A stretch of 64,000 bases of DNA from the NCBI GenBank assembly GCA_012103475.1, contig WLWS01000003.1:399565-463564 (forward strand), written 5' to 3'. The translations under genes were made by a program, and so were the position numbers. The notes beneath the pieces are model-generated. The model had not been told where the DNA came from. It searched no databases and was given only the letters and a program-made list of their open reading frames with translations. This document shows, piece by piece, positions 5,211-20,561 of this stretch (the first letter of the stretch is position 1; the number at the start of each line of letters is the position of its first letter). Origin of the DNA: Gammaproteobacteria bacterium. Its GTDB lineage: Bacteria > Pseudomonadota > Gammaproteobacteria > Eutrophobiales > Eutrophobiaceae.

Positions 5211-5234
5211 CGATAATCAGCAGGTCTGCAAAGA

Positions 5235-5498
5235 GTGATTCGAGTTCATATTCCGGCCCCAATGCGAGGCTATTGCGAGGGCAAGGATGTAGTCGAGGCG
5301 AATGGCGACAATATTCGCCAGCTTATTTTGGCCTTGGATTGTAGTTATCCAGGGATGAAAGATGCTTTAATGGATCAGGATCTTTTGAAACCGGATGTGG
5401 CCATCGCAGTCGATGGCCACATTACACCGCTGGGTCTACTTCAAGGTCTTAGCGAAGTTAGCGAGGTAAGTTTTTTTCCCGCTATTGGTGGTGGCTAA
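5235..5498 (+). CDS. MoaD/ThiS-family ubiquitin-like (beta-grasp) protein with C-terminal Gly-Gly
   Basis: 87 aa with a GTG start, 24 nt after the large subunit. MIRVHIPAPMRGY...GDNIRQLILAL...AVDGH...FFPAIGGG ends in GG immediately before the stop, as sulfur-carrier proteins do. Confidence 0.65.
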   Translation: MIRVHIPAPMRGYCEGKDVVEANGDNIRQLILALDCSYPGMKDALMDQDLLKPDVAIAVDGHITPLGLLQGLSEVSEVSFFPAIGGG

Positions 5499-5513
5499 GT
5501 CAATATTTTGGAA

Positions 5514-6068
5514 TCAAATTCCTACCAGGCGACCAAACTCCGGATGGCTGACGATGTTGTCAATCAATTGTTGAACTGCCGGGCCAAATGCATCGGCTAC
5601 ATTCTGGCAGGCGCTGTATGCACTATAGCTAGTTTTAAATGGGTATTTCGTTGTTATTGAAAAGCCCTCTGATTTATCAGACGAAATAGTGAAGCCGAGC
5701 TCCCAAAAGGCAGGAGACACTGAGCTAAAGGTTGCAGAATCTAAAAGACCGGTTATTTCTACCTCACTATCTACGGCGTACACTTGCGCCAGAAACAATT
5801 CTTTTTGCATTGCTTCTTTGATGTATTCAGCTTTCGATTTACCCGAGGCAACATCTACGGGACCCATCAATCGACATGTTAACTCGCCAATTTCGGGGTT
5901 TTCAGAAAACCCGCCTAAATGTACCTTAATGTCGGCTTTTCCTAAAATACTCTGAAATTTTAAGACGTTATCCGTTGATTCGGAATACGGACGCGAGGTG
6001 GTTGTTTCACAACCGGATAATAGTAGAACTGAGCAAATAATAGACAAGCATATTAGTCTGCCATGCAT
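5514..6068 (-). CDS. lipoprotein of unknown function
   Basis: 184 aa. Signal peptide with lipobox MHGRLICLSIICSVLLLSGC|ETT. I recognise no family. Confidence 0.55.
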   Translation of the reverse strand: MHGRLICLSIICSVLLLSGCETTTSRPYSESTDNVLKFQSILGKADIKVHLGGFSENPEIGELTCRLMGPVDVASGKSKAEYIKEAMQKELFLAQVYAVDSEVEITGLLDSATFSSVSPAFWELGFTISSDKSEGFSITTKYPFKTSYSAYSACQNVADAFGPAVQQLIDNIVSHPEFGRLVGI

Positions 6069-6151
6069 GATAAATTCCCTCTTTGGTTAGTTTAGGATTT
6101 AGTTTATCGAAGTGTTTGTGACTTAAACGTAAAAAATTAGGGTTTAAAGGC

Positions 6152-8011
6152 CTAATTTTCAGATCCTTTAACTTCATGAACCCAGACTTTAACAGAATCC
6201 TCAAGCATATCGAGGGGCAGTGGTCCGTTTCTCAACACGACGTCGTGAAACTCACGAAGGTTAAATTTCTCACCGAGAATTTCTTCCGTCATAGTTCTTA
6301 ATTCCAGAATTTTATTCATCCCAATCTTGTAAGCGGTTGCCTGAGAAGGAATGACGATATAGCGCTCGATTGCCTTGACGATGTCTCCACGAGGGTTCGG
6401 CGTATTCTCTTCAAGATATTCAATAGCTTGCTCTCGCGTCCAGCGTTTTGCGTGTATGCCTGTATCCACAACCAGTCGGCAGGCGCGCCAGATTTCCATG
6501 GCGAGGCGGCCGAAGTCTGAATAGGGATCAGAATAAAAGCCCATCTCTTTTGGTAAGTATTCTGAATAGAGTCCCCAACCTTCACCATAAGCAGTGTAAT
6601 GCCCGAATTTTCTAAAGCGGGGGATACCTTCCAGCTCACTGGCAATGGAACCCTGCATATGATGACCGGGAATGCCTTCATGATAGGCAAGCGCTTCCAT
6701 TTGATAATTGGGCATGTCTGACATTCGATACAGATTGGCGTAATACACACCTGGACGAGAACCATCTGGTGTGCCGCGTTGATAAAAAGCTTTGCCTGCG
6801 GATTTTTCCCTGAAAGGTTCTACTGCTTTGACGCTGATGTCCGCTTTTGGCTTGGTGATAAACATCTCATCCAGGCGGGTTTTCATCGTGTTGATAATAC
6901 TTTTCGCTTTTTCCAGGTATGCCTGTCTGCCTTGTTCAGATTGCGGATAATAAAATTGCTCATCCTTGCGAGTAAAAGCAAAAAAGTCCTGAAGCGATCC
7001 TTTGAAGCCGACTTCTTGCATGATTGAACGCATTTCTTCATGGATGCGGGCAACTTCGCGTAATCCAATGTTGTGAATCTCTTCAGCTGTCAGCTTGGTC
7101 GTTGTGGTGTTTCTCAAGGCGGCATTATAAAAATCATCGCCATTCGGGAGCTTCCAGGCGCCATCGTCAGTGGTGGCAATTTTCTGCTGCTGTTTAAGTC
7201 GATCGATTAGGCTGCGGTAAGCGGGACCCACAGAATCAAGCAAAACATTTTTTGCCTGATCAATAAGCACGTGTTTTTCCAACTGTGTTATCTCAAGGGC
7301 ATTTACCTTGTCCTTGAAATCGCTGAGAAGAGTACTGTCTTCTTCACTGTCTTCAAAGGGAGAACCTTTTAATACGTTCTCACTGTCAGAAATCACTCTG
7401 GGAAATACGAAAAGCGGTGGTACGATGCCCATGGCCTCGCGCTTATCCATTTTCTTAATTAATTCAGTGACAACAGCAGCAATACCGTCCAGTCGGCTGA
7501 TATAATCTAGTGCATCCTGTTTTTCTGACACGCGGTGAATATTGATCAGGAAAGAAGGAATCCAGCTTTGCCAGCCATGCATCTGGTTAATCGGATAGTT
7601 ATGATGGCGCCATCTGAAATTGGCGATCTCATTTTCAGCATTCTTTACGAAAAGGTCGTAACTTATTCTAGTCTGCTCATTTAGCTTACCCCGATCAATT
7701 TCAGACTTCAGACGAGCCAGCTGCCGCATAGTGACATCAATATCCTGCCAGGCTTTTTCTTCTGAAAGATCATCCCAGAGATCTTGCTGATCTTTAATAC
7801 CGAGATAACTCTGGTACATCGGAGCACGATTGAGTGACTCAGTAAAAGCCTGTTCAAAAAAAGCACTGGCTTTGGCATTCTCATCGCTCTCTTTTGTAAC
7901 AGTTTGAACAAGTTCATCAGACTCAAGACCTTTCTCAACTTGCGAAGGCGTGGTTTGACAAGCGGGTAGCAGCAATAAGCCGGAAAGGTATAAAAAGGCG
8001 AGTCGATTCAT
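6152..8011 (-). CDS. DUF885-family protein (metallopeptidase-like HExxGHH motif), probably an exported lipoprotein
   Basis: 619 aa. N-terminal MNRLAFLYLSGLLLLPAC signal. AYHEGIPGHHMQ is the DUF885 signature. Its start overlaps the stop of the upstream AraC/LLM ORF by 1 nt at 8011. Confidence 0.8.
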   Translation of the reverse strand: MNRLAFLYLSGLLLLPACQTTPSQVEKGLESDELVQTVTKESDENAKASAFFEQAFTESLNRAPMYQSYLGIKDQQDLWDDLSEEKAWQDIDVTMRQLARLKSEIDRGKLNEQTRISYDLFVKNAENEIANFRWRHHNYPINQMHGWQSWIPSFLINIHRVSEKQDALDYISRLDGIAAVVTELIKKMDKREAMGIVPPLFVFPRVISDSENVLKGSPFEDSEEDSTLLSDFKDKVNALEITQLEKHVLIDQAKNVLLDSVGPAYRSLIDRLKQQQKIATTDDGAWKLPNGDDFYNAALRNTTTTKLTAEEIHNIGLREVARIHEEMRSIMQEVGFKGSLQDFFAFTRKDEQFYYPQSEQGRQAYLEKAKSIINTMKTRLDEMFITKPKADISVKAVEPFREKSAGKAFYQRGTPDGSRPGVYYANLYRMSDMPNYQMEALAYHEGIPGHHMQGSIASELEGIPRFRKFGHYTAYGEGWGLYSEYLPKEMGFYSDPYSDFGRLAMEIWRACRLVVDTGIHAKRWTREQAIEYLEENTPNPRGDIVKAIERYIVIPSQATAYKIGMNKILELRTMTEEILGEKFNLREFHDVVLRNGPLPLDMLEDSVKVWVHEVKGSEN

Positions 8012-10092
8012 TAATGAGATCTCAATGCGGGCATGATGTGATCAGCAAACAGTTGCTGTGTTCGAAGGCACTGTTCGCGACTCAAATCGCTGAAATGACT
8101 GATAATTATCAGCTCGTCAAACTGGAATTCGTCATAAAGCCCGAGCAGTTGTTGACCCACCTTGTCAGGTGTACCGACAAACACGATATCGTTCTTAATT
8201 AGTTCATCGTAGGTCATACGTTCAATACTATGAATGAAATCCATGGTGTAAAACGCGTAGCCGGCGTTGACCATGCGTTCGCGTTCGGCATCATTTTTCG
8301 GGAAACTATCGTGGTTTGGCTGAGCATTGAATTTAATGAATTTTTCAACACTTGCCTGCGCTTCCCTGTGTGCCTTGTCTTCATCTTCATCCAGATAAAT
8401 CGCCTTGATATAGCCGACGGAAGGTGTGGTTCTGGCTTCGGTGCAGGCATCGCGATAAATTTTTACTGGTTCTATAAATGCACCACTCGGTACGGGGCCG
8501 CCGACGACGATGCCCCATTCTTTCTGGGCCGCCTGAGTAAACCATTTTGCGCTGGTACCGACCTGGTAAATTTTCGGATGTGGATCTTGAAAGGGTTTTG
8601 GTACTACAGCAATGTCATCCACATTGTAGTGTTCGCCGAAATAGGAGAAGCGCTCCCCGATCCAGGCTTTTTGCAGAATCTCCAGACTTTCAACAAACAG
8701 ACCCATACTATCTTCCATTTCGAGGTTGCCCGGTTTACATAACCAGGGATGACCACGACCCACCCCGCATTCGATACGGCCTTTAGTCAGTTGATCAACC
8801 ATGGCAATTTCGCCCGCAAGCACCATCGGGTTGTGCAGTGGCAGGGTATGACACAGCGCTCTGAATTTCAGATTCTCGGTGCGCTCAGCGAGTGCAGTAA
8901 ACACGGCAAGTGGATTCGGATTTACCGCAAATTGCTCATAAAAAGGGTGCTCAAGCGTGGCGAAAACTTCAAAGCCTTTCTTATCGGTGTCTGCGGCGAT
9001 AGCCATGACATCGTCGATTACGTCAGCGTGGTTTTTTCCCGGAGGACATTGAAATTCGGCATAGCTGCCGAAGCGTAAATTATCAGGCATAGTTTTTTTT
9101 CTATTTTTGTAAGTGTCTGAAGGCAGTTGGTGAAAACGAAATTTGTAATACTGTGAGAATTTCCCCGGGTGTGTAAAACCCGAAGCGAATGCCGCGTCAG
9201 TGACTGAGATGTTCTCTCCTGTCTGGCTAAGTAAGCGATACGCGTGGTCAAGTCGCATGTTTCGAATGTAGACAGAAGGTGTAAGCCCCAGCTCTTTCTT
9301 AAAGGCCATTTGTAGTGAGCGAATACTGGATTGCGCAATCACAGCAAGATCTCTCAAGGAGATTGGTTCATGAAAATTCGAACTAATATAATCTTTCACA
9401 TGAACGATTTTGTCAGGGATTCCGGCTTCTGAATAGTCCTGATATATCTGACTATAGGTATGCGGCATTTCAGTGAGAATGCTGCTCAACAGAATTTCTT
9501 CAAGATGCTGATTCAGGCGCTCAGTGTCAAACCAGTGCGGGTGTTCATTCAGATCATGGCATAGACCGATCAATAATCGTCCAAGCGAATGTTCGTCACT
9601 CGATAGAGTTTTAGCGAATGGCAGAAACTCAATAGGAGCTTGCAAAGTAGTGCCGAGCTCCTGCTCAAGAAAGTTATGTAATCTTACTCCGGATAACCTG
9701 AGTGTTAATTGATTATGATTTTCAGAGAGTCGTATTTTTATCGGATCCGTGGGGCTCATCACACAGGCCATGCCAGCCCTAGTATTCATAATATTACCGG
9801 ATTGCAAAAGTTCAGCATTACCCGCCAGAGTAAACTTGATCAGATAGGAGTCATTGGAAGGCAGGGCATTAATATTCACTTCGCTACCATATTGCAGGGC
9901 ATGGATGGATAGCGAGGATAAATTTGCACCGTTATGGCGAAAAGCAACCTGCCGCTTACGATGAGCGAGTTGCAGATCATGAGGCCAGAACAGATCGGAA
10001 AGGTGGGCGCGCGCTTTTTCCAGCCTGGCGGTCTGGAATAGAGGTCGTTGGCACAGCAGTAAATTTTCCGTCTCAATCCGCATAGAATTCAC
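8011..10092 (-). CDS. in-frame fusion ORF: AraC-family transcriptional regulator (N-terminal ~345 aa) plus LLM-class (luciferase-like) flavin-dependent oxidoreductase (C-terminal ~360 aa)
   Basis: 693 aa. The N-terminal half has an AraC_binding_2-like sensor region and a double HTH (ISLRDLAVIAQSSIRSLQMAFKK; VTDAAFASGFTHPGKFSQYYKFRF). From the internal ATG at 9090 the sequence is LLM-like (MPDNLRFGSYAEF..., GRIECGVGRGHPW, ...IISHFSD). No stop separates the halves. An A8 run (T8 at 9093-9100 on the + strand) sits directly 5' of the internal ATG. Confidence 0.75.
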   Translation of the reverse strand: MNSMRIETENLLLCQRPLFQTARLEKARAHLSDLFWPHDLQLAHRKRQVAFRHNGANLSSLSIHALQYGSEVNINALPSNDSYLIKFTLAGNAELLQSGNIMNTRAGMACVMSPTDPIKIRLSENHNQLTLRLSGVRLHNFLEQELGTTLQAPIEFLPFAKTLSSDEHSLGRLLIGLCHDLNEHPHWFDTERLNQHLEEILLSSILTEMPHTYSQIYQDYSEAGIPDKIVHVKDYISSNFHEPISLRDLAVIAQSSIRSLQMAFKKELGLTPSVYIRNMRLDHAYRLLSQTGENISVTDAAFASGFTHPGKFSQYYKFRFHQLPSDTYKNRKKTMPDNLRFGSYAEFQCPPGKNHADVIDDVMAIAADTDKKGFEVFATLEHPFYEQFAVNPNPLAVFTALAERTENLKFRALCHTLPLHNPMVLAGEIAMVDQLTKGRIECGVGRGHPWLCKPGNLEMEDSMGLFVESLEILQKAWIGERFSYFGEHYNVDDIAVVPKPFQDPHPKIYQVGTSAKWFTQAAQKEWGIVVGGPVPSGAFIEPVKIYRDACTEARTTPSVGYIKAIYLDEDEDKAHREAQASVEKFIKFNAQPNHDSFPKNDAERERMVNAGYAFYTMDFIHSIERMTYDELIKNDIVFVGTPDKVGQQLLGLYDEFQFDELIIISHFSDLSREQCLRTQQLFADHIMPALRSH

Positions 10093-10249
10093 TTCAGAAT
10101 CACCCGAGTGCCAGTGTTGACTATCATCAGCCGAAATTCAACCAGCCAGTGCCCGAAAAAGAGCCTGATTTTCGCAAAAGGGATAGTGGCGAGAGCCCAC
10201 GCTTGACTATACTATGATGACTTGACGGGCAGGTATGAGGAGAGAGCCG

Positions 10250-11467
10250 ATGTGTGCAGCAGTTGCTGAAGATAGACGTTGGGCAAAACAATATCCCTGG
10301 CTTGGAGAAGAGCCGATACCCACAGATTCCTGTATTTCTGAAGAAATCTACCAGCAGGAAATCGAAAAGGTTTTTAAGAAAGTCTGGCTGAGTGTAGGGC
10401 GTGTCGAAGAATTGCCCGAACCGGGCTGTTATAAATTAAAACGTCTGGATTTCGCCAGCACCTCAGTCCTGCTGATTCGCGGCAAAGATAACGAGATTCG
10501 TGCTTTTCACAACACCTGTTCTCATCGAGGTAATACCGTCGTCGTGCCAGAGGGAGAGTGGGATAATTTCGGCCAGAAATCCGCTTTCAGTTGTCGCTTT
10601 CATGCCTGGACTTATAACGATCAGGGCGAGCTGATCGGTGCGCAGGACGAGAAGGGTATGCCACCGTGTTTCAACAAGTCAGAAAATGGGCTGACGCCGA
10701 TTAGTCTGGATATCTGGGAAGGCTTTATTTTCATCAATCTGGATGAAAATCCAAAAGTTGGTCTGAAAGACTATCTGGGTAAGATGGGGGATCACTTTTC
10801 CGGCTTCCCCTATGACGAAATCACCCACTGTTTCAGCTACTACACATATATGGATACCAACTGGAAAGTGGGGCTGGATGCCTTCGCTGAGGCCTACCAT
10901 GTGAATACTATTCACGCAGGTTCTTTTCCGGGGACCTTTTCCACCGGTTTGCAGATGATTAAGCTTTACGACGATCATCGGAGCACGGCAGTCTGTTTTA
11001 ACCCACCTAAAAGTGCGCCTCCCGTTGCCGGATTAGCACAATCAAAAGCCCGGGGTTCATTAGTGAACAACGTGGCGGAAACTATTCTGCCACCAACTCT
11101 TAATGACGAAAAACGGGATGATTATGCCTTTGAACTGAGTGTGTTCTTTCCCAACTGGCTTCTGCATGTGTCTGAGGGGATCTGGTTTACTCATCAGTTC
11201 TGGCCAATCGCACAGGGCAAAACGCTTTGGGAAGGCAAGTATTACGTTAAAGAACCTCGCACCAATAGTGAAAAATGGGCGCTTGAACATGCCATGGTGG
11301 TGCAACGAAATGCCTGGCTGGAAGACACTGCGACGATGGAAGGTACTTACTATGCTCTGAAATCAGGTAGTAAGAAATTTATGCAGTTACACGATGAAGA
11401 AATTCTCGTGCGTCATGGCTATCATGTGCTGGAGAAGTATCTCAAGGGCGAAGAGGGTGGTCACTAA
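10250..11467 (+). CDS. Rieske (2Fe-2S) non-haem-iron oxygenase alpha subunit, copy 1
   Basis: Rieske motif CSHRGN...CRFHAWTY. Mononuclear iron region AEAYHVNTIH. The ORF opens at 10235, but the ATG at 10250 follows GAGGAGAG (10237-10244) at good spacing. Paralogue of 13452-14687. Confidence 0.88.
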   Translation: MCAAVAEDRRWAKQYPWLGEEPIPTDSCISEEIYQQEIEKVFKKVWLSVGRVEELPEPGCYKLKRLDFASTSVLLIRGKDNEIRAFHNTCSHRGNTVVVPEGEWDNFGQKSAFSCRFHAWTYNDQGELIGAQDEKGMPPCFNKSENGLTPISLDIWEGFIFINLDENPKVGLKDYLGKMGDHFSGFPYDEITHCFSYYTYMDTNWKVGLDAFAEAYHVNTIHAGSFPGTFSTGLQMIKLYDDHRSTAVCFNPPKSAPPVAGLAQSKARGSLVNNVAETILPPTLNDEKRDDYAFELSVFFPNWLLHVSEGIWFTHQFWPIAQGKTLWEGKYYVKEPRTNSEKWALEHAMVVQRNAWLEDTATMEGTYYALKSGSKKFMQLHDEEILVRHGYHVLEKYLKGEEGGH

Positions 11468-11808
11468 TGGCTGCTCAACTTCCCGATGGTTTTGAAGATA
11501 TGGAAAGCTGGGTTCAGGAATGGGCAATGTCTACGCAAAATCTGCGCTGGGAAAAACGCCTTAGATCGACCGCGGAAGAATTGATTGCTTTCTATCAGGC
11601 AGTTCAGCCCAGGCTGGAAAAAATTCTGGAACACGCGGATCAATATGAAATCGGCAAGTTACCTGAGCCCTCTGCGCGACTCTATTCTCTCGCGCTGATG
11701 GTAGCGGAAATCGCGCCTAACGTTGAACTCTATAATGGTGCACCGGATGTCCCCCACAGTTATGAAGAAATGCGCTTTATTGCTGTTCACGGTAACGATC
11801 CACACTAA
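11467..11808 (+). CDS. conserved small (113 aa) protein of unknown function, partner of the Rieske oxygenase, copy 1
   Basis: Its start overlaps the upstream stop (TAATG at 11465-11469). Clear paralogue of 14689-15033 (DQYEIGKLPE vs DQYEIGNIPE; APNVELY vs APHVELY; RFIAVHG vs RFEAAHG). Confidence 0.6.
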   Translation: MAAQLPDGFEDMESWVQEWAMSTQNLRWEKRLRSTAEELIAFYQAVQPRLEKILEHADQYEIGKLPEPSARLYSLALMVAEIAPNVELYNGAPDVPHSYEEMRFIAVHGNDPH

Positions 11809-11810
11809 GC

Positions 11811-12281
11811 ATGAGTGAGCTCGAAAAGCAGGTTGCCTGGTTAACAGCACTGGAAAAAATCAGACGAGTCATCGCGGTTTATGCGAAAGCAGGCGATGAT
11901 AAAAACAACCCGCAAGTGCTGGCTTCGATTATGTGCGAAAACGCCCATTGGGAATGCGAAGGCTTTGGCAGCTTTGATGGCAGGGCGAAAATCACCGAGG
12001 AACTGTCGAAGGTCGCCGAGGAACGTATTCTCTGGTCACTACATTACCCGGTCTCGCCGATAATCGATGTGAGTGACGATGGCAACAGCGCACATGGCTT
12101 CTGGTGGTTATGGGAATTAACGACCATGTCGATTGACGATAAAAAAGAAGAAAGTAACTGGCTCGGTGCGACCTACGATTGTGATTTTGTACGTGAAGCC
12201 GATGGCTGGAAAATTAGTCATATGGTCTTGACCATTAAAAAGGTGGTCCCTTATTCCGACATACCCAGCGCAGCAGTGTAA
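11811..12281 (+). CDS. SnoaL-like / NTF2-fold protein (possible divergent oxygenase beta subunit), copy 1
   Basis: 156 aa, starting 2 nt after the previous stop. IRRVIAVYAKAGDD..., WSLHYPVSPIIDV, GFWWLWE and DGWKISHMVLTIKK match the SnoaL_4/NTF2-like pattern. Paralogue of 15040-15537. Confidence 0.7.
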   Translation: MSELEKQVAWLTALEKIRRVIAVYAKAGDDKNNPQVLASIMCENAHWECEGFGSFDGRAKITEELSKVAEERILWSLHYPVSPIIDVSDDGNSAHGFWWLWELTTMSIDDKKEESNWLGATYDCDFVREADGWKISHMVLTIKKVVPYSDIPSAAV

Positions 12282-12320
12282 ATTCAACAAGCAATCCTCT
12301 GACTTAAGCAGGAGAAGTAC

Positions 12321-13448
12321 ATGTCAACGAAAGCAGATGAATACATAAAAATTGATCGTAGCAAACAACTCGGTGATGAACAGGATGTCGGTCATAACCG
12401 CTGGCATCCTGACATTAAACCGGTTGCCGAAGTAGAGCCCGGTCAGACGATTGGTATTGAGACCAGAGACGCTTTTGATGGACAGTTTGACGACGACACA
12501 CCGGCTGCGGATGTAGGTTGTTGTAATCTGAACTTGATTCATCCTTTAACCGGTCCGGTATTCATCAAAGGGGCGGAGCCAGGTGATATTCTTGAAGTCA
12601 AAGTTCAGGAAGTTGCGCCCCAAGCTTTTGGTTTTACCGTACAGGTTCCGGGTTTTGGTTTCCTGCGTGATGTCTTCACCGAACCACATATCATTCATTG
12701 GCATATTGCTGACAATAAGGCGATTTCACCTGATTTACCGGGCGTGTGTATTCCCGGAGCCCCTTTTATGGGCGTGATAGGCACCTCGCCATCTCATGAG
12801 TTGCTGGAGCAAATCAATAAACGGGAAACAGATTTGCAGGAAAGAGGCGGCGCCGTGTTGTTGCCAGATACGACTGATGCCGTACCGACTGATGCCGGCA
12901 TCGCCAGCAAAGCGGTTCGTACGATTGCGCCACACGAGAGTGGCGGTAATGTCGACATCAAGCAATTAACGGCAGGCACAACAGTACGCATACCGGTTTA
13001 CACAGAAGGGGCGCTTTTCTCCGTTGGTGATGCTCATTTCGCTCAGGGCGATAATGAAAGTTGCGGAACCGCGGTGGAAATGGGTGCCACCTTTTATGGT
13101 TCATTCAGTTTAAAGAAGGGTGAAGCGAAGAAACGTAATATTAATGATATACAGTTTTACCGTGATGATTACTTCACCTCTCCGGAAATGGCTGTACCCC
13201 AACGTTTCTTCGCGACCACAGGGCAGTCCTATACGAAAGATGGTGTCGCGCACTCGGAAGAAACCACGCTGGCTGCGCGCAATGCTTTGCTGAATATGAT
13301 CGAATATCTGGTGACGGAACGCGGTTACACAGATCAGCAGGCATACGCAATCTGCAGTGTGGCCGTGGATTTGAAAATCTCTGAAATGGTAGATGTCCCG
13401 AATTTCATCGTTTCAGCATTTCTTCCGCTCGATATTTTTACGGAGTAA
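12321..13448 (+). CDS. acetamidase/formamidase (FmdA/AmdA) family amidohydrolase
   Basis: 375 aa. N-terminal ...IKIDRSKQLGDEQDVGHNRWHPDI...GQTIGIETRDAFDGQ, HPLTGPVFIKGAEPGD, ESGGNVDIKQL and GDAHFAQGDNESCGTAVE are typical of this family. Confidence 0.85.
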   Translation: MSTKADEYIKIDRSKQLGDEQDVGHNRWHPDIKPVAEVEPGQTIGIETRDAFDGQFDDDTPAADVGCCNLNLIHPLTGPVFIKGAEPGDILEVKVQEVAPQAFGFTVQVPGFGFLRDVFTEPHIIHWHIADNKAISPDLPGVCIPGAPFMGVIGTSPSHELLEQINKRETDLQERGGAVLLPDTTDAVPTDAGIASKAVRTIAPHESGGNVDIKQLTAGTTVRIPVYTEGALFSVGDAHFAQGDNESCGTAVEMGATFYGSFSLKKGEAKKRNINDIQFYRDDYFTSPEMAVPQRFFATTGQSYTKDGVAHSEETTLAARNALLNMIEYLVTERGYTDQQAYAICSVAVDLKISEMVDVPNFIVSAFLPLDIFTE

Positions 13449-13451
13449 GTT

Positions 13452-14687
13452 ATGGCAGCAGCTAGTGATGAACTGAAAAGGGCAATGCCTTATACCACAA
13501 GGTATCCGGAGCTAGGCACCGGACCGATTGATGTGGCGCCTTTGATCGACCCTGATTTATTTGAATTAGAAAAGGAAAAGATATTCAGGAAAACCTGGCT
13601 ACTGGTCGGGCGCGAAGAGGAGATTCCAGAACCGGGAGACTATAAAGTCAGACAGATCGATGTTGCCTCAACATCGGTCATTGTAGTGCGTGACAAGACT
13701 GGCAAGATAAATGCCTTTCATAATCTTTGTACACATCGTGGTAACAAGATTATTCAGGAAGAGGGAGCGCAGACTACTGGTCGCACGCGCTCTCATTTGA
13801 TGACCTGTCGTTTTCATGCATGGAGTTTTTCCACCGATGGCAAGTTACATGGAGTACCGAAAGAAGAGAATTTTAATAAGCTTGATAAAAACTGCCTTGG
13901 CCTGAAAACCATTCATTGTGAACAGTGGCAGGGTTTTATCTTTATTAACCTGGATAAGACACCTGAGAAGAACCTTGTTGAGTATCTTGAGGGTATGGCC
14001 GATCAATTTGCCGGTTATCCTTATCACGAGTCGACTGTGAGTTATCGCTATTCAACCGTGCTCAATTGTAACTGGAAAGTCGCCATGTACGCTTTCTCCG
14101 AGGGCTATCATGTGCCGACAATACATGCAGCGACTTTACCGAGTCTGGCGAAAATAGAACAAATCGATTATCAGTGTTTTGGACCGCACAGTACCTCAGC
14201 GCTCTATGTGCCACCGGTCGCCGGTATGCAACCCACTCCGGCAACTGGCAATCTGGGTGGACGACTTGTCACTTCCAAACAGCACGGGCCTCATCTGGAT
14301 TTATTACCTGAGAAAATAAACCCTGAGCGTCGCACAGATTTTCAATTTGAATTCCCGGTATTTTTTCCCAATCTGGTCTTGCACCTGGGCGCCGGCAACG
14401 GTTATCCGGGAATGACTTATTTTCACCATCAGTTCTGGCCGCTATCTGTGGGGCAGACGCTCTGGGAAGGCACCAATTATTTCAGGCCACCAAAAACGCC
14501 TAGTGAAAGAGTGGCTATTGCTCATACCAACGCTTTGCATCGAAATGCCTGGCTTGAAGATACCTCGACAATGGAAGACACATACGCGGCACTTTGTTCT
14601 GGTGCCTTGGATGAAATGGTGCTGATGGATGAAGAGATTATGATTCGAAATACCCATCGTGCCTGGCACGAATATATGGGAGTGTAA
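13452..14687 (+). CDS. Rieske (2Fe-2S) non-haem-iron oxygenase alpha subunit, copy 2
   Basis: 411 aa. CTHRGN...CRFHAWSF, SEGYHVPTIH and RNAWLEDTSTMED. Collinear paralogue of 10250-11467. Confidence 0.88.
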   Translation: MAAASDELKRAMPYTTRYPELGTGPIDVAPLIDPDLFELEKEKIFRKTWLLVGREEEIPEPGDYKVRQIDVASTSVIVVRDKTGKINAFHNLCTHRGNKIIQEEGAQTTGRTRSHLMTCRFHAWSFSTDGKLHGVPKEENFNKLDKNCLGLKTIHCEQWQGFIFINLDKTPEKNLVEYLEGMADQFAGYPYHESTVSYRYSTVLNCNWKVAMYAFSEGYHVPTIHAATLPSLAKIEQIDYQCFGPHSTSALYVPPVAGMQPTPATGNLGGRLVTSKQHGPHLDLLPEKINPERRTDFQFEFPVFFPNLVLHLGAGNGYPGMTYFHHQFWPLSVGQTLWEGTNYFRPPKTPSERVAIAHTNALHRNAWLEDTSTMEDTYAALCSGALDEMVLMDEEIMIRNTHRAWHEYMGV

Positions 14688-14688
14688 A

Positions 14689-15033
14689 ATGATGGCCTTA
14701 CTCCCTGAAAAATTTGTGTCACTGAATCCTTTTGTTGAAAGCTGGGCTCTGCCGAACGAGCTTCAACGTTCACAGCAGCGCTGGTCAGCAAGTGAAGAAG
14801 ATTATCGTCGCTTCTATGATGCCATGATGCCCATGCTGGATGAGACTCTTGATTATCTTGATCAATATGAGATAGGTAACATTCCCGAAGAAGCCATAGT
14901 CTTATATCACCTGTCGCTCGCCTTTGCTGAAGCAGCACCTCATGTTGAATTGTACGAATGTGCGAATCAGGTCCCCAACAGCTTTGAGGCGGTGCGTTTT
15001 GAGGCTGCTCATGGCGAACAGATAGACAGTTAA
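14689..15033 (+). CDS. conserved small (~114 aa) protein of unknown function, partner of the Rieske oxygenase, copy 2
   Basis: The ORF is open from 14659, but the ATG at 14689 lies 1 nt after the upstream TAA (14685-14687). Paralogue of 11467-11808. Confidence 0.6.
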   Translation: MMALLPEKFVSLNPFVESWALPNELQRSQQRWSASEEDYRRFYDAMMPMLDETLDYLDQYEIGNIPEEAIVLYHLSLAFAEAAPHVELYECANQVPNSFEAVRFEAAHGEQIDS

Positions 15034-15039
15034 GCTCAA

Positions 15040-15537
15040 ATGCAATTAAGTTTCGAGCAAAGAATCACCCGCCTTGAAGACTATGAGGCGATAAAAGTGA
15101 TTATCGCTACGTTCTCGCGTGGAGCAGATGCCGGATGTGATCCGACGATTTTACGTCCCATTTTTTGTGACGATGCTATTTTCGATATTGGCCAGTTTGG
15201 TGTGCTGGAAGGTGGCGATCACATCGTCAATGAAATGCACAATAACACCGATATTGGATTCAACTGGACTCTGCACTATCTGATTTCTCCGGTCATCGAA
15301 ATTCAGGACGATTTGAATACTGCTCAATGCTTTTACTATCTGTGGGAGACAGCTACGCATCCGACCAAACAGGGAAAGGAAGACAGTTACTGGATTGGCG
15401 GCTGGTACGATGCCACCGCGGTAAAAGAAAAAGACGGAAAATGGCGTTTTAAACACCTGAAGCTCACAGTTAAGTTAATGTCCACCTATGCCGAAGGCTG
15501 GAAGCCAGTGCCCGGTTCATTCGATGAACTCGGCTAA
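15040..15537 (+). CDS. SnoaL-like / NTF2-fold protein, copy 2
   Basis: 165 aa. IKVIIATFSRGADAG..., WTLHYLISPVIEI, CFYYLWE and DGKWRFKHLKLTVK. Paralogue of 11811-12281. Confidence 0.7.
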   Translation: MQLSFEQRITRLEDYEAIKVIIATFSRGADAGCDPTILRPIFCDDAIFDIGQFGVLEGGDHIVNEMHNNTDIGFNWTLHYLISPVIEIQDDLNTAQCFYYLWETATHPTKQGKEDSYWIGGWYDATAVKEKDGKWRFKHLKLTVKLMSTYAEGWKPVPGSFDELG

Positions 15538-15609
15538 ACATTTTTAAGCCGCCTTTCTTTCGCTCTAGCCATCCTCTACACTCTCGTCTTTTTGTAATAG
15601 GAAAGAGGC

Positions 15610-16890
15610 GTGAAAAAAGCACTCAATACTTTCTCAGCAGTAGCCGCCACCGAAGCCATTCAGTCTGGCGCTTGTACTTCAGAGCAACTAGTCCAGAATT
15701 GTCTGGATCGCCTTCAGAGTCGTGAAAATGAAGTGCATGCCTGGCAGTATTTCAACCCTGAGTATGCACTTGAGCAGGCGAGAGATTGTGACAGAACGGA
15801 GCGCAGGAGTGCATTGCACGGTGTACCAGTCGGCATCAAGGACATTATTGATACGGCTGATATGCCCACTGATTATGGCTCGGCGATTTTCAATGCACAT
15901 CAGCCAGAAGCAGATGCTCGATGCATTGAATTATTAAAGAATGCAGGCGCGGTGATTCTGGGTAAAACAGTGACAACCGAATTTGCCTACCTGAACCCCG
16001 GACCAACAAGAAATCCACATAATCTTCAGCATACGCCGGGTGGTTCTTCAAGCGGTTCAGCTGCGGCAGTTGCCGATCAACACGTACCACTTGCTCTGGG
16101 TACCCAGACTGCAGGTTCGATAATTCGACCCGCCAGTTATTGTGGTGTAGTTGCTTACAAACCCAGTTTTGACAGTTATTCCAGCGCTGGTATTCACCCC
16201 TTTGCTCCAAGTCTGGATACCTTAGGCGGCTTTGCACGAAGTGTTGCCGATTTGGGCTTGTTAGCAAATGTATTAGCTAATAAAGAGATAATTGTCGAAA
16301 CTCGCAGACCCAAAAGTATCGCTATGGTAAAAGGCCCGGCCTGGTCAGCGGCTGAAGAGGAGACTCATGAGTTATTTCAATTGATTCATGAATTAATGTC
16401 CAAGAATGACATTAGCGTTCAAGAGGTTCAGCTCCCGCTAGAGTTCGATGAGATTAATGAAGCACAGAGATTTATTCAGCTCAAAGAATGCACTCAGAAT
16501 TTGAACAAATATTATGAAAACACGCCAGACAAGCTTTCTGAAAAATTACGCCTGGATTATGAATATGGAATGACTATTAGCGACAATGATATGAGGCATG
16601 CTTACGAGCTTGTTGAAAATTGTAAAAAAGCTATTAAGACATTGTTTGCTAATCATGAATTGATAGTAACACCGGCTTCAGCCGGAAGTGCGCCATTGGC
16701 GGAATCAGGCACTGGTGATCCTGTATTTAACAGAATGTGGACGGCGATGCATCTGCCCTGTGTCAACTTGCCTGTCTGGCTGAAAAAAAGGAGTCTTCCC
16801 CTTGGTATTCAACTGGTTGGCGAATTCGGACAGGATGCACGAGTGCTGTCAAATGCGCTTTGTATCGAACAGTATCTGAGTAAAAAATAA
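15610..16890 (+). CDS. amidase-signature (AS) family amidase
   Basis: 426 aa with a GTG start after AAAGAGG. Contains the GGSSSGSAAAVA signature plus GVPVGIKD and GTQTAGSIIRPASYCG. Confidence 0.88.
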   Translation: MKKALNTFSAVAATEAIQSGACTSEQLVQNCLDRLQSRENEVHAWQYFNPEYALEQARDCDRTERRSALHGVPVGIKDIIDTADMPTDYGSAIFNAHQPEADARCIELLKNAGAVILGKTVTTEFAYLNPGPTRNPHNLQHTPGGSSSGSAAAVADQHVPLALGTQTAGSIIRPASYCGVVAYKPSFDSYSSAGIHPFAPSLDTLGGFARSVADLGLLANVLANKEIIVETRRPKSIAMVKGPAWSAAEEETHELFQLIHELMSKNDISVQEVQLPLEFDEINEAQRFIQLKECTQNLNKYYENTPDKLSEKLRLDYEYGMTISDNDMRHAYELVENCKKAIKTLFANHELIVTPASAGSAPLAESGTGDPVFNRMWTAMHLPCVNLPVWLKKRSLPLGIQLVGEFGQDARVLSNALCIEQYLSKK

Positions 16891-16904: not shown

Positions 16905-19900
16905 ATGAAACTGATTTTGAATGAAAAAATTGTGCGTAAAATAGTTTTTTCAGCAACATTACTAATTGGGTTTTACAGCCTGGCCGGCTTCTTGATTGCA
17001 CCATCTATTGTTAAAGGAATGTTAGTTGATTTTGTCGCTGATAACTCTGATGCGATTCTTCAAATAAAGAAAATTCGAATTAATCCCTTTACCCTGACGC
17101 TCGAAGCTAATGAAATTCAGTTATCTGACCGGAATCATATAGCACTCGCCAGAGTCACTGAAGTAGTTGCTAATCTTCAAGTGACAAGTGTTTTTACTGG
17201 TGTCTTAACTTTAAGCGATGTGATTATAAATGAGCCGCTTATCACTGTTAATTTTACTGAAGGTGAATATCAAAATTCTATTACACGGCGAGAAACCAAG
17301 GGTGACAAAGCAACTGAAACACCCGAGTTTGATATAGGCAAATTCCAATTATTGAATGGGAAGCTTCTTGTTGGGAACAAGCAGTCTGAAAACATGTTCA
17401 GTCAGTCTGTTAATAATATTTCTCTGAGTGTCAACGATATTGGTAATCGAATAGGAAATACGGGTGAGTATAGCCTCTCACTTGATGCTGAAAATGCGGG
17501 AAGGCTAAGTGTAAAGGGAGCTATAAGTCTTTTTCACCAAACAAGCATTGGTGAAGCGACTCTTAGCGGCGCACGAGTGGAAGCCTATGCTGCCTGGATA
17601 CCAGATCTCCGCGACCTGTCACCCGCAGGTACTGTCGATCTAAACTTGAACTATGCAGTTGAAAGGCAAAATCGACATTTGAAGATGAGTCTGGATCGCT
17701 TATCTGTCTTAATGGAACAAATTCAGTTATGGCCGCATGAGAACCTGCTTTTTGATCTGGAAAAACTGGATGTAGAGTCGGTGGTGAATATCGATATCAG
17801 TGACTCGATAGCAAGAGTAAGAATAGGCGGGGGAAGCGCGAATATGCTCAATGCGAGACTCATTGACACGGAGATAGACAAGAATATTGTCACTTTCCAG
17901 ACAACGCAATTGACTGGAGTAGCACTTGATACAGAACAAAAACAGCTGGAGATGTCTCTGGCGAAAATAGAGAATGGCGAATTGAGTCTGTCCCGTGATA
18001 ATGATGGGCAGATAGATTTGTATACCTATCTGAGTTTGCTAGAAAATGAAGGAGAAGGTAATTCAATTGTCGACAAACAAGCTGAAAGCAGCTGGTTATT
18101 TACCATCGAGAAAGCAATGTTGGATGACATCGCTATAAGTATTAATGATAAAGCGACAGAGCTGGAAAGTACGCATTATCTGACGGGTTTAACTCTTAAT
18201 GTTTCAACATTATCAAACCTTGCTGACTCGTCGAGTCAATTTGAACTTCAGGCCTTACTCAATCAGAAGGGAAAACTTTCGCTTCATGGTTGGTTTGATC
18301 TGGTAGAACTGAAATCGAAATTTGACGTAAGTCTTGAGGATCTCGAGCTACTGCCTTTCAATCCCTATCTGCGCGAGTACTCGAGGCTCAATATCACCAG
18401 GGGCAAGCTGTCCTTGCAAGCTCAGGTGAAAGCTGAAGAAGGTGAAGTTTCTGCACAAACAAGTATGGATGTGAGTCAGCTTGAATTCGACGGTTTGCAG
18501 AATGACAGGCGACTGGCTGCTGTTGAGAAGATCACCGTTGCGAATATGTTTCTGAAAGCCTTCCCACTATCCGCCAGTGTCGAGCTGGTAGAGCTTAATA
18601 AACCCTTTGCTTTCATTGAAATTGACGAGGCAAGTCATTTGAATGTAAGTGACTGGTTTACTATTGAAAAAGGAGAAGAGTCTGGTGCTGAGCGTCTTAA
18701 GGAAAGTGAAACCAGTAAAGCAGGAGAAATCAGTGTCGCTCGTATGAATATCAGTGATGGTAGTATTGATTTTCAGGATCTAACTCTGTCGCCCGGCTTA
18801 AGAACAAGGTTAACAGCACTTAATGGAGATTTTGCCGGAATTAACCTGGCAGAAAATGCAAAGCCTGTTGTGGCTGAGCTGGATGGTCGGGTAGGTGAAT
18901 TCGGAGTGGTCAACATTAAGTCTCAACTTCTACCTGCAGATCCTACTCAGGCAAGTGAAATTAATATGTCTATGAAAAATATAGACACAAGTCTGTTGTC
19001 ACCCTACGCAGGGCGTTTTGCTGGCAGGGCGATAAGCTCTGGCAAGCTTGATCTGGATCTTGATTACAAAATCAAATCCGGAACTGTTGCAGGTGAAAAT
19101 TCTATAATCCTGAAAGATTTGATACTTGGTGAACAGGTTGAAAGTAAAGAGGCCCTGGACTTGCCATTGGATATGGCAATCGCCTTATTGCAGGACAAGA
19201 ACGGAAAAATAGATGTCAGTATTCCGGTTTCGGGTGATTTGAATAATCCGAAGTTCGATCTCGCCGCGCTTATCCGAAAAGCCATTGGAAATATGATCGG
19301 CGGGATTGTTAAGGCTCCTTTTAAGGCTCTGGGGAATATTTTCGGTGGTAGCGATAAGGATCTCGATGGTATTCCGTTTGAACCCGGGATCGCGAAAATT
19401 ACTCCGCCGGCCGCCGAGGTCTTACAGACACTAAAGAAAATACTGGATGAGCGCCCGGCATTGGGACTGAAGATAAAGCAGGGCTTTGATCCCGTTCGTG
19501 ACCGTCAGGCCATTGCTGCTCTTACATTGCGAGAACGATTACAGGCGGAAACGGAAATCACTTCTACTGAATTTAATTCGGGCCCACTGTTATTTTCTGA
19601 TCCGCGAGTGCAAAAGGTAATATTACGTTTTGCCAAACGGGATTTCTCATCAGAAGATATTGAATTAATTCGGCAAAAAAGGGCTATTCCTGAGTTAGGA
19701 GAAGATAGTGAAGGTGAATTGCAAAGTGAATTTTATAAAAACTTATACGCAAAGTTGGTTAACTCTTTGACAGTTGCAGAAGAGCAATTAAAGGAGCTTT
19801 CTGAAATTCGCAGTCAGGCTATAACTGACTATTTGCTTGCAGAAGGAATTACAGTGGAACGAATCAGTTTAACTGATGGGGGAGCTGTAAAAAGTACTGC

Positions 19901-19946
19901 CGGCAAATGGGTAGCTGTCGAATTAGAACTTGTTCCGCTCAGATAG
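16905..19946 (+). CDS. DUF748-like large envelope protein (N-terminal membrane anchor)
   Basis: 1013 aa. The N-terminal TM segment (FSATLLIGFYSLAGFLIAP) is followed by ...ILQIKKIRINPFTLTLEANEIQLSD, which I recognise as the DUF748 start pattern. The long beta-rich body has no enzymatic motif. It starts 14 nt after the amidase stop. Confidence 0.55.
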   Translation: MKLILNEKIVRKIVFSATLLIGFYSLAGFLIAPSIVKGMLVDFVADNSDAILQIKKIRINPFTLTLEANEIQLSDRNHIALARVTEVVANLQVTSVFTGVLTLSDVIINEPLITVNFTEGEYQNSITRRETKGDKATETPEFDIGKFQLLNGKLLVGNKQSENMFSQSVNNISLSVNDIGNRIGNTGEYSLSLDAENAGRLSVKGAISLFHQTSIGEATLSGARVEAYAAWIPDLRDLSPAGTVDLNLNYAVERQNRHLKMSLDRLSVLMEQIQLWPHENLLFDLEKLDVESVVNIDISDSIARVRIGGGSANMLNARLIDTEIDKNIVTFQTTQLTGVALDTEQKQLEMSLAKIENGELSLSRDNDGQIDLYTYLSLLENEGEGNSIVDKQAESSWLFTIEKAMLDDIAISINDKATELESTHYLTGLTLNVSTLSNLADSSSQFELQALLNQKGKLSLHGWFDLVELKSKFDVSLEDLELLPFNPYLREYSRLNITRGKLSLQAQVKAEEGEVSAQTSMDVSQLEFDGLQNDRRLAAVEKITVANMFLKAFPLSASVELVELNKPFAFIEIDEASHLNVSDWFTIEKGEESGAERLKESETSKAGEISVARMNISDGSIDFQDLTLSPGLRTRLTALNGDFAGINLAENAKPVVAELDGRVGEFGVVNIKSQLLPADPTQASEINMSMKNIDTSLLSPYAGRFAGRAISSGKLDLDLDYKIKSGTVAGENSIILKDLILGEQVESKEALDLPLDMAIALLQDKNGKIDVSIPVSGDLNNPKFDLAALIRKAIGNMIGGIVKAPFKALGNIFGGSDKDLDGIPFEPGIAKITPPAAEVLQTLKKILDERPALGLKIKQGFDPVRDRQAIAALTLRERLQAETEITSTEFNSGPLLFSDPRVQKVILRFAKRDFSSEDIELIRQKRAIPELGEDSEGELQSEFYKNLYAKLVNSLTVAEEQLKELSEIRSQAITDYLLAEGITVERISLTDGGAVKSTAGKWVAVELELVPLR

Positions 19947-20559
19947 ACTGTAGATAGCTTAATACGTCTTTAAGGGGTAAGACATCAGCATAGCGCCTCT
20001 GTATGTCTCTCAGATTCGCATCGTGCGCCTCTTGTTCAACATCTCCAACACATTCCTGCGGCACGATGGTGCGCCAGCCATAGGAAAAACTGTCTACAAC
20101 CGACGCTCTTACACAACCGGAGGTGATACAGCCGCAGACGATTACGGTATCGACGCCATGCTTATTGAAGTAGGTTGGTACTGCTGAAGAAAAGAACATT
20201 GACGGCGCGTATTTATAAACCAGAAAATCATAATCTTTGTCGTAAATTCTGGGGTCCAGCTCGATGGCTTTACTTCCGTAAAAAAAATCACCGTTATACA
20301 TTGCCGGAATTTTCCAGTGCGGCATGTCTGCTTCGCTTTGAAAGGCCATCGCGCAAGTGGCAACCGGAATGTTTTTACTTCGTGCGAGTTCTAATAGAGG
20401 GGCAGTGTTTTCAATCGCAGCATCCACCAGCGGGGAGCCGCCCATGGGGAATTCATCTTTTATATAGCCTAGTTGGAAATCAACTACAGCTATCGCTGGC
20501 TTGCTGCCGAAACCGACCTCTTTACCGCCATAGCTACGTTTTTCATAGGCATCAGACAT
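19939..20559 (-). CDS. isochorismatase-family cysteine amidohydrolase (N-carbamoylsarcosine amidase / maleamate amidohydrolase-like)
   Basis: 206 aa. The Asp-Lys-Cys triad context is IAVVDFQ, VYKYAPSMF and VIVCGCITSGCVRAS. Confidence 0.8.
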   Translation of the reverse strand: MSDAYEKRSYGGKEVGFGSKPAIAVVDFQLGYIKDEFPMGGSPLVDAAIENTAPLLELARSKNIPVATCAMAFQSEADMPHWKIPAMYNGDFFYGSKAIELDPRIYDKDYDFLVYKYAPSMFFSSAVPTYFNKHGVDTVIVCGCITSGCVRASVVDSFSYGWRTIVPQECVGDVEQEAHDANLRDIQRRYADVLPLKDVLSYLQSI

Positions 20560-20561
20560 GT

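Follow-up and report, generated by a model that had tools for sequence, protein, structure and literature searches.

Classical Rieske dioxygenases, such as HcaEFCD and the naphthalene and biphenyl enzymes, are alpha3beta3 assemblies supplied by a ferredoxin and a reductase, and their beta subunits have the NTF2 fold. The monooxygenases CntA, GbcA and Stc2 consist of alpha subunits only and form trimers without a small partner. That a Rieske oxygenase can depend on an additional accessory protein of a non-classical kind is known from the caffeine N7-demethylase NdmCDE, in which the structural subunit NdmE is not of the NTF2 type but is glutathione-S-transferase-like. We analyzed a locus within a 64,000-nucleotide stretch of DNA (hereafter the window) that encodes two Rieske alpha subunits (A1 and A2), each followed by an all-helical protein of about 113 residues (S1 and S2) and an NTF2-like protein (N1 and N2). 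We conclude that alpha and S make up the two-protein core of a novel type of Rieske oxygenase.

As in the classical dioxygenases, both alpha proteins contain the Pfam domains Rieske and Ring_hydroxyl_A with all ligands, and in relatives the gene cluster also encodes both a Rieske ferredoxin and a reductase of the FNR type. However, the protein encoded beside alpha is the helical S and not an NTF2 beta subunit, whereas N is optional and does not resemble Ring_hydroxyl_B. The alpha subunits in the PDB match only over the N-terminal half, at about E 1e-27. The resemblance to the alpha-only monooxygenases consists of a best, partial NCBIfam match to GbcA, the presence of CntA among the top PDB matches, and a bridging Glu ahead of the first iron His (E-x2-H), which is invariant here and which CntA likewise has. 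In contrast to that group, the scores are 113–123 bits as compared to an equivalog cut-off of 670, and the gene neighbourhoods suggest catabolism of aromatic compounds and N-heterocycles rather than of quaternary amines. Unlike NdmE, S has no detectable relation to a known fold, and the alpha proteins of this locus keep their own Rieske domain.

Two copies of the module in one operon

Eight open reading frames were confirmed on the plus strand at positions 10250–16890 of the window, in the order alpha-S-N, formamidase-family enzyme, alpha-S-N, amidase. The first copy comprises A1 (10250..11467, 405 aa), S1 (11467..11808, 113 aa), whose start overlaps the stop of A1, and N1 (11811..12281, SnoaL_4 at E 1e-15). 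It is followed by Fmd, an FmdA/AmdA-family amidohydrolase of the formamidase/acetamidase type (12321..13448, PF03069 FmdA_AmdA at E 1e-109). The second copy comprises A2 (13452..14687, 411 aa), S2 (14689..15033, 114 aa) and N2 (15040..15537, SnoaL_4 at E 1e-20), and the last gene encodes an amidase-signature enzyme similar to malonamidase E2 (15610..16890, PF01425 at E 6e-71). The longest reading frame of A1 begins at 10235, but the alternative start at 10250, used in the first-pass annotation, is preceded by a better Shine-Dalgarno sequence (GAGGAGA).

The paralogy of the three protein pairs is far above chance, with identities of 42% between A1 and A2 (E 2e-115), 43% between S1 and S2 (E 1e-30) and 34% between N1 and N2 (E 1e-34). 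This confirms the duplicated triplet described in the first-pass annotation, and all of the peptides quoted there were found in the translations. It had also stated that the DNA of the triplets is not alike, which agrees with a top blastn patch of only 159 nt at 68.6%. The best explanation is that the two alpha-S-N copies are old paralogues in one catabolic operon. The A1/S1 junction (TAATG, 11465–11469) and the A2/S2 junction (TAAAATG, 14685–14691) are located exactly where they had been placed earlier. The remaining intergenic gaps are 2, 39, 3, 6 and 72 nt, and no terminator-like sites were observed on the plus strand within 10235–16890. The earlier proposal of one operon of eight genes may need to be extended, since a DUF748 gene lies 3' of the amidase gene after a gap of only 14 nt and transcription may continue into it.

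The alpha subunits

Throughout the alpha family, the ligands of the Rieske cluster and of the iron are conserved, and the NWK motif and the Rieske ligands are invariant. In A2, the family-invariant residues are C93, H95, C119, H122, E217, H220, H225 and D370. The iron motif had previously been given an H-x3-H spacing, which is here corrected to E-x2-H-x4-H (EAYHVNTIH and EGYHVPTIH). Based on the invariant Rieske ligands, the NWK motif and residues E217, H220, H225 and D370, alpha is predicted to be catalytically competent, with an intact Rieske cluster, His-His-Asp iron site and bridging Glu.

S is a conserved partner of the alpha clade

No match to S was found in Pfam, NCBIfam, PDB sequences or PDB folds, in line with the first-pass annotation, in which its family was not recognized. 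The AlphaFold2 model of S2 is confident (pLDDT 86.9) and displays five helices; it matched none of the PDB folds (best E 2.7). At 50% identity, the S family comprises about 1,087 clusters; almost all of those listed are 105–125 aa long, and S1 has an orthologue group of its own with 33 clusters. Two long matches were frameshift-like junk, and natural alpha-S or S-N fusions were not found. S is thus a large family without annotation, corresponding to no described family. An electron carrier is ruled out by the absence of any invariant Cys or His in the family.

The linkage of S to alpha was analyzed in both directions. Among 78 S genes from 53 sources, 77 directly adjoin a Rieske alpha gene that is read in the same direction. 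This alpha gene precedes S in 74 cases, and the start and stop codons often overlap. The sources span Gamma-, Alpha- and Betaproteobacteria, Actinomycetota, Myxococcota and Binataceae. The reciprocal test used 80 metagenomic loci (32–62% identity) found by alpha motifs only, 67 of which were evaluable. S was present in 62 of the evaluable loci, downstream of alpha in 60 of these, and absent in 5. The distance matrices of alpha and S are correlated with r = 0.93 for 44 non-redundant pairs, paralogues included, a value reached in none of 2000 permutations in a Mantel test. Both directions of the analysis thus show S to be a conserved partner of this alpha clade.

Roles of N and S

According to the first-pass annotation, the SnoaL-like proteins may be divergent beta subunits, so that alpha, S and N would make up one oxygenase with S as a third subunit. 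This reading is favoured by the alpha-S-N order with tight junctions, seen twice in the window, by the joint duplication of the three genes, by the fact that about 40 of the 78 S genes (window and related loci) are immediately followed by N, and by the NTF2-superfamily fold that N shares with the beta subunits, which are themselves diverse. However, N was identified in only 8 of the 80 alpha-anchored loci, far below the rate for S, and it is absent from the alpha-S loci of Rhodococcus, Cupriavidus, Mycolicibacterium, Nocardia and Sphingomonas. Close relatives lack N in one triplet but keep everything else (the N1 gene is missing in L012, L015, L020 and L021). None of 22 N members matched Ring_hydroxyl_B, and the hhalign probability was 1.5% against HcaF as compared to 89.5% against LinA. 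N1 and N2 share SnoaL_4 with LinA (HCH dehydrochlorinase), BaiE (bile-acid 7-alpha-dehydratase) and enzymes of the scytalone-dehydratase type, and the N-family profile matches LinA and BaiE in the PDB. D30 and H79 of N2 align on the catalytic Asp25/His73 dyad of LinA at an identity of only about 19%, and N1 retains the Asp and His that are invariant in the N family. The AlphaFold2 model of N2 (pLDDT 60.5) was too poor for comparison. Unlike LinA and BaiE, N is encoded within an oxygenase operon. Judged by its distribution and these alignments, N looks like an optional add-on enzyme and not like a classical beta subunit, although its fold and the diversity of beta subunits would allow a beta-like structural role. 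Most alpha-S loci lack N, which is an accessory restricted to this sub-clade. A three-subunit enzyme is therefore unlikely, and the conserved core of the module is better described as the alpha-S pair, with N as a facultative NTF2-type accessory.

The suggestion that S is a third subunit or chaperone is thus supported in part, as regards its partnership with alpha but not a module of three subunits. The strict alpha-S synteny would be explained as well as by a subunit if S were devoted to the maturation, assembly or stabilisation of this alpha clade, for example to iron or cluster loading or to trimer assembly, or if it were an effector that adjusts electron transfer. S is a small protein that lacks cofactor motifs and folds independently, and small assembly proteins are known elsewhere, for example DmpK of phenol hydroxylase. 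We nevertheless consider such a role an unlikely alternative, since the start/stop overlap with alpha in many loci suggests that the two proteins are made at a constant ratio, as is more typical of subunits, and since the divergence of S follows that of its own alpha, even between paralogues in one genome. It could also be argued that S has an unrelated function, as a small enzyme, carrier or regulator, and only happens to lie in operons with alpha: its lack of a recognizable family leaves room for another activity, and one S gene on lin plasmids has no alpha and adjoins an EthD gene. This orphan copy is located in an IS6100-bounded fragment, however, and alpha remains the immediate neighbour of S from phylum to phylum although all of the other neighbours change, which, together with the reciprocal rate, makes an unrelated function very improbable.

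The best explanation as a whole, to which we assign a probability of roughly 0.6, is a catabolic operon with two paralogous Rieske oxygenases, each an alpha-S pair, with N as an accessory and hydrolases acting on C-N bonds. Each oxygenase would consist of a catalytic alpha and a translationally coupled, cofactor-less S. We infer that S is most likely a structural or accessory subunit bound to alpha at a fixed ratio, taking the place of the NTF2 beta subunit of the classical enzymes; a role in maturation is the less likely option. N is probably an Asp-His eliminase or dehydratase similar to LinA and BaiE that would use the product of the oxygenase as its substrate. Fmd and the malonamidase-like amidase may cut amide, formyl or lactam C-N bonds, and electrons would have to be supplied by a ferredoxin and a reductase encoded outside the window.

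Neighbouring genes and pathway context

No ferredoxin or reductase for the oxygenase was found in the window; some alpha-S loci elsewhere contain a single PDR/VanB-type reductase. Fmd scored 254 bits against the NCBIfam formamidase model, below its cut-off of 500; among PDB entries, Fmd matches 2wkn best (E 6.6e-53). The amidase matches malonamidase E2 over the full length (E 1e-74) and displays the motif GGSSSGS. On the minus strand, a 693-aa reading frame (8011..10092) joins an AraC-type, AndR-like regulator in frame with a luciferase-like monooxygenase (Pfam AraC_binding_2, HTH_18 and Bac_luciferase). The monooxygenase part is conserved beside A1, in divergent orientation, in about 20 related genomes, and in the Myxococcota loci L029 and L036 it belongs to one operon with the oxygenase genes.

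Genes for formamidase-family enzymes, amidases and amidohydrolases recur beside alpha-S in relatives, which makes the earlier proposal of an N-containing or amide substrate plausible; the substrate class would be an aromatic amide or an N-heterocycle. The gene order in Marinobacter zhejiangensis is Fmd-alpha-S-N-Rieske ferredoxin-reductase-catechol 2,3-dioxygenase, and in Variovorax alpha-S-SnoaL occurs with a 2,5-dihydroxypyridine dioxygenase and an isochorismatase-family gene. An Acinetobacter plasmid (L040), with an S protein 46% identical to S1, has the order Fmd-alpha-S-N-StyA-flavin reductase-SDR-ferredoxin-reductase. In A. piscicola p38, genes 1684–1690 are induced by indole and skatole (PMC11434297); that study covered flavin monooxygenases only and listed alpha as induced, with S and N unmentioned. 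The stretch from alpha to the ferredoxin in L040 agrees with genes 1684–1690 in order and numbering, and on this basis, rather than on the p38 sequence, the L040 module appears to be part of the skatole/indole-induced Acinetobacter cluster. In contrast, the operon in the window has no StyA-type gene and contains two oxygenase modules.

Organization of the gene block

The eight open reading frames between positions 10235 and 16890 on the forward strand follow the order described in the first-pass annotation, and together form a module that is both real and unusual. The block opens with the Rieske alpha subunit A1 (10235 or 10250 to 11467), followed by the 113-aa protein S1 (11467-11808) and the NTF2-like protein N1 (11811-12281). 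Of the two possible starts of A1, position 10250 has the better Shine-Dalgarno sequence. Downstream of a formamidase/acetamidase-family gene (Fmd, 12321-13448), the same order recurs with A2 (13452-14687), the 114-aa protein S2 (14689-15033) and N2 (15040-15537), the latter two sharing a reading frame, and an amidase-signature enzyme (15610-16890) closes the block. The gene junctions are overlapping or 1-6 nt long, except for two gaps of 39 and 72 nt, both of which contain ribosome-binding sites. No terminator-like site was found on the forward strand inside 10235-16890; this is the sole informative point of the promoter and terminator scan, the counts of which did not reach the mean of the shuffled-sequence controls. 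An Rfam scan of the whole window revealed no riboswitch or other RNA hinting at a ligand.

The paralogous proteins are 42% identical for A1 and A2 (E = 2e-115), 43% for S1 and S2 (E = 1e-30) and 34% for N1 and N2 (E = 1e-34). At the DNA level, the two triplets resemble each other in short patches only, of approximately 69% identity. Thus the duplication is old, as had been proposed from the dissimilarity of the DNA.

A 1013-aa DUF748 protein is encoded at 16905-19946 on the same strand. Since this gene begins 14 nt past the amidase stop codon, the oxygenase transcript may extend into it. No homologue was detected by tblastn in 39 related genome loci.

Conserved residues of the alpha subunits

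Both alpha subunits contain a Rieske domain with the CxH...CxxH motif (PF00355) and a Ring_hydroxyl_A domain (PF00848), the match to the latter covering positions 5-207 of 208. In A2 numbering, residues C93, H95, C119 and H122 are 97-99% conserved among 77 family members. The iron-site motif noted previously is present, with its spacing corrected to E-x2-H-x4-H; residues E217, H220, H225 and D370 show little or no variation in either the 77 members or a diverse alignment of 24 sequences. The two alignments agree in conserving the Rieske ligands, the NWK motif, the bridging Glu, both iron His residues and the Asp of the WLED motif, and we infer that D370 serves as the third iron ligand. The alpha subunits are predicted to be competent, yet they are distant from anything characterised. 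Alpha subunits in the PDB match the N-terminal half only (E of about 1e-27), with alpha-beta and alpha-only enzymes scoring alike, and the best NCBIfam match, GbcA, is partial and far below the cut-off. The window itself encodes neither a ferredoxin nor a reductase for this system; both adjoin homologous modules elsewhere.

A family of small helical proteins linked to the alpha subunit

The small protein had been described as belonging to no recognised family, and this description was borne out by every search. S1 and S2 had no match in Pfam or NCBIfam, and a Pfam search with 41 diverse family members gave a best E-value of 0.0066, with no Pfam family matched by more than one member. Comparison with PDB sequences, using both single sequences in phmmer and a profile, gave nothing better than E = 0.07, and the best Foldseek match of the S2 model to PDB folds had an E-value of 2.7. 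Literature searches, which covered small helical and third Rieske subunits as well as the present combination of genes, returned nothing relevant, and none of the papers searched describes the family.

Searches for close relatives yielded 44 clusters of the S2 type and 33 of the S1 type, all of about 113 aa and without a Pfam domain, and all S members are named "hypothetical protein" in their sources. In an exhaustive profile search, the family grew to 1,087 clusters at 50% identity (E <= 1e-3), 545 of them at E <= 1e-10, and the length was 105-125 aa in nearly all of the 150 clusters listed. The AlphaFold2 model of S2 consists of five helices (pLDDT 86.9, pTM 0.80). Residues P6, W19, R27, L72 and E87 are invariant across the family. 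There is no conserved Cys or His, and the protein is therefore neither the missing ferredoxin nor any other metal-cluster protein.

The association with the alpha subunit was assessed from both sides. Starting from S, we collected 39 species-representative genome loci, 8 plasmid loci, 6 genome or metagenome loci and the window. In this set, 77 of the 78 S genes have a same-strand alpha gene as their direct neighbour; S is located immediately downstream of alpha in 74 cases, and the stop codon of alpha often overlaps the start codon of S. The hosts include Gamma-, Alpha- and Betaproteobacteria, Actinomycetota (Rhodococcus, Nocardia and Mycolicibacterium), Myxococcota and Binataceae. In the opposite direction, metagenomes were scanned with motifs of alpha alone, and 80 loci with alpha subunits 32-62% identical to A2 were retrieved. 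Thirteen of these end at a contig edge, and S was present in 62 of the 67 evaluable loci (60 downstream and 2 upstream). The suggested link between the small protein and the oxygenase thus holds in both directions.

The pairwise distances of alpha and S are strongly correlated (r = 0.93 for 44 non-redundant pairs, within-genome paralogue pairs included), which is weaker evidence because any two operon neighbours would correlate somewhat. In agreement with this correlation, duplications always copy alpha and S together, as seen in the window, in Nocardia (locus L048) and in three pairs in Novosphingobium (locus L041). The Nocardia duplication is independent, which means that the alpha-S unit has been duplicated more than once, in lineages far apart. 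Translational coupling and paralogue-specific co-divergence also bear on what S does with its partner; because of these two features, we favour a stable subunit over a maturation factor.

In the Nocardia locus (Nocardia sp. CA-084685, 1159-6577), the alpha subunits of the two pairs are 69% identical and the S proteins 52%. A TauD-family dioxygenase gene separates the pairs, an Amidohydro_1 gene comes after the second pair, and there is no NTF2 protein. The one S gene of the collection that lacks an adjoining Rieske alpha gene is located at 7968-8330 of locus L042, from plasmid pTK4 of Sphingobium sp. TKS, where it adjoins an EthD-domain gene just downstream of linC. This element is a fragment cut off and bounded by IS6100, and the same arrangement is present on six other lin plasmids (HCH degradation). 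Long S matches were sought among the best 150 representatives as natural fusions that could indicate interaction; the two recovered (252 and 182 aa) have low-complexity, frameshift-like tails and were rejected as such evidence. Apart from the known ligands, four residues of A2 (H246, D393, E395 and R399), conserved in A1 as well, vary little or not at all within the S-linked alpha clade. They may contribute to an interface with S, for which the invariant R27, R31 and E87 of S are the counterpart candidates.

The NTF2-like protein resembles LinA rather than a beta subunit

N1 and N2 had been proposed to be divergent beta subunits. All 22 members of the N family examined match SnoaL_4 (PF13577, E = 1e-15 to 1e-25), and none of the 22 matches Ring_hydroxyl_B (PF00866) at E <= 1. 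When compared by hhalign, the canonical beta subunit HcaF of E. coli gave a probability of 1.5% over 24 columns and LinA a probability of 89.5% over 126 columns. The PDB matches of the N-family profile were uncharacterised NTF2 proteins, LinA, BaiE and a scytalone-dehydratase-like protein, with no oxygenase beta subunit among them. Residues D30 and H79 of N2, both family-invariant, align with D25 and H73 of LinA, which form its catalytic dyad; BaiE uses an equivalent Tyr-x4-Asp plus His. An NTF2-like fold is supported by the SnoaL_4 matches, and the topology of the AlphaFold2 model of N2, built with N1 as the sole other sequence, is consistent with it, albeit at a pLDDT of 60.5 and a pTM of 0.53.

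Nor is N always encoded with alpha. Four close relatives (L012, L015, L020 and L021) have no N gene behind S1, and most other close relatives with both modules have none behind S2, where an unrelated reverse-strand gene is located instead, as checked by an ORF listing in locus L002. The loci of Rhodococcus, Cupriavidus, Mycolicibacterium, Nocardia and Sphingomonas also lack it. An N-like gene was encountered in only 8 of the 80 alpha-anchored loci (distance limit 2.5 kb), among them the four with a downstream flank whose alpha subunit is closest to those of the window. Taken together with the Ring_hydroxyl_B and HcaF results, this argues against a classical beta subunit. Because N is absent from most alpha-S loci and from one triplet of the relatives, it is a sub-clade accessory, most simply an enzyme, although a structural role is possible.

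A third SnoaL-like gene, encoding a protein 30-33% identical to N2, is present in many relatives (loci L001-L021, at about 230-1800 on the reverse strand, for example L002 900-1379). It is located on the opposite strand next to a gene for a luciferase-like monooxygenase (LLM); the window has a DUF885 gene at this position.

Proposed composition of the oxygenase

The three-subunit oxygenase suggested in the first-pass annotation is only partly supported, and the evidence shifts the emphasis to a pair of alpha and S, with the LinA-like protein as a facultative accessory. To our knowledge, Rieske oxygenases have so far been described only as alpha-only or alpha-beta enzymes. We tentatively propose, with a probability of roughly 40%, that the all-helical S protein of about 113 residues replaces the NTF2 beta subunit in a large, phylum-spanning clade, forming an alpha-S holoenzyme, and that the LinA-like N protein is a dedicated eliminase that resolves the dihydrodiol or aminohydrin product. 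If true, Rieske alpha subunits would have a second kind of partner protein, and roughly a thousand sequence clusters now annotated as "hypothetical protein" could be given a function. It would also be a warning for biocatalysis and pathway expression of such alpha subunits, in that the small downstream gene may be needed.

Hydrolases and pathway context

The Fmd protein matches PF03069 over its full length (positions 1-372 of 373, E = 1.4e-109), and its closest PDB match is 2wkn (E = 6.6e-53). Its score against the NCBIfam equivalog for formamidase FmdA is 254.6 bits and misses the cut-off of 500. By sequence, it is a member of the FmdA/AmdA family that is not assignable as a formamidase proper. 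The amidase matches PF01425 (E = 5.6e-71), carries the GGSSSGS signature and aligns over its full length with malonamidase E2 (E = 1e-74); it misses the cut-off of every NCBIfam equivalog.

Two related loci encode a complete electron chain. In Marinobacter zhejiangensis, genes for a two-component regulator, an Fmd-family enzyme, alpha, S, N, a Rieske ferredoxin, an FNR-type reductase and a catechol 2,3-dioxygenase follow one another in this order, with a FAA-hydrolase-family gene further downstream. On an Acinetobacter plasmid, a transporter gene is followed by Fmd, alpha, S and N and then by genes for a StyA-type monooxygenase, a flavin reductase, an SDR, a ferredoxin and a reductase. The order and spacing of genes 1684 (alpha), 1687, 1688 and 1690 of A. 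piscicola p38 match this plasmid locus (PMC11434297). In p38, gene 1684 is induced by indole and by skatole, and genes 1687 and 1688 jointly degrade both compounds upon heterologous expression (PMC11434297). From gene order, the Acinetobacter plasmid locus appears to correspond to the skatole- and indole-induced p38 cluster. Other neighbours of alpha-S pairs include PDR/VanB-type reductases, amidohydrolases, LLM flavoenzymes, 2,5-dihydroxypyridine dioxygenase (NicX) and molybdenum hydroxylases.

The operon and its context point to the breakdown of an aromatic amide or N-heterocycle, in which ring hydroxylation would fall to the alpha-S oxygenases and removal of the amide, formyl or lactam nitrogen to the hydrolases. 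The modules occur in clusters for the degradation of N-heterocycles and aromatic amines or amides, one of them the apparently skatole- and indole-induced cluster of Acinetobacter, and testing S could therefore unlock missing pathway steps. Two candidates for a known system of this kind were rejected. PicB of picolinate catabolism is described with an ordinary set of alpha, beta, ferredoxin and reductase, and the Rhodococcus ska cluster is aniline-dioxygenase-like, with alpha, beta, a glutamine amidotransferase and a glutamine synthetase.

Other genes in the window

Two sets of molybdenum hydroxylases of the xanthine-dehydrogenase family are located at 1589-5210 on the forward strand and at 31555-35689 on the reverse strand, the latter including a CoxG-like protein. 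Conversion of an N-heteroaromatic ring into a lactam, upstream of the oxygenase steps, fits these enzymes. The reverse-strand block at 19939-25755 encodes an isochorismatase-family hydrolase, an OxoO/CarAa-type Rieske oxygenase (PF11723, homotrimeric), an alpha/beta hydrolase, a BphC-like extradiol dioxygenase and an SDR, as well as a 451-aa protein without a Pfam match (23694-25049). It looks like a meta-cleavage route of the quinolone or carbazole type. The OxoO/CarAa-type Rieske set includes a meta-cleavage-hydrolase gene, and the wider window has a second LLM.

An LLM gene lies divergently beside A1 in relatives, and this placement is conserved. At 8011-10092 on the reverse strand of the window, a 693-aa ORF joins an AndR-like AraC-type regulator (residues 1 to about 336) in frame with an LLM (about 337-693). 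In about 20 related genomes the LLM stands alone at this position, and locus L020 has a separate AraC gene; the joined ORF may be a true fusion or reflect a lost stop codon or an error in the MAG assembly. Two adjoining reverse-strand ORFs of 177 and 185 aa (39446-39979 and 40094-40651) each match half an MFS transporter and are probably a frameshifted or split transporter gene, beside which a flavin reductase is located at 40672-41157. The last quarter of the window is occupied by a 5424-aa forward-strand ORF (47482-63756) with an N-terminal TPS secretion domain and DUF5649 repeats, which is a two-partner-secretion exoprotein of the filamentous-haemagglutinin-like type.
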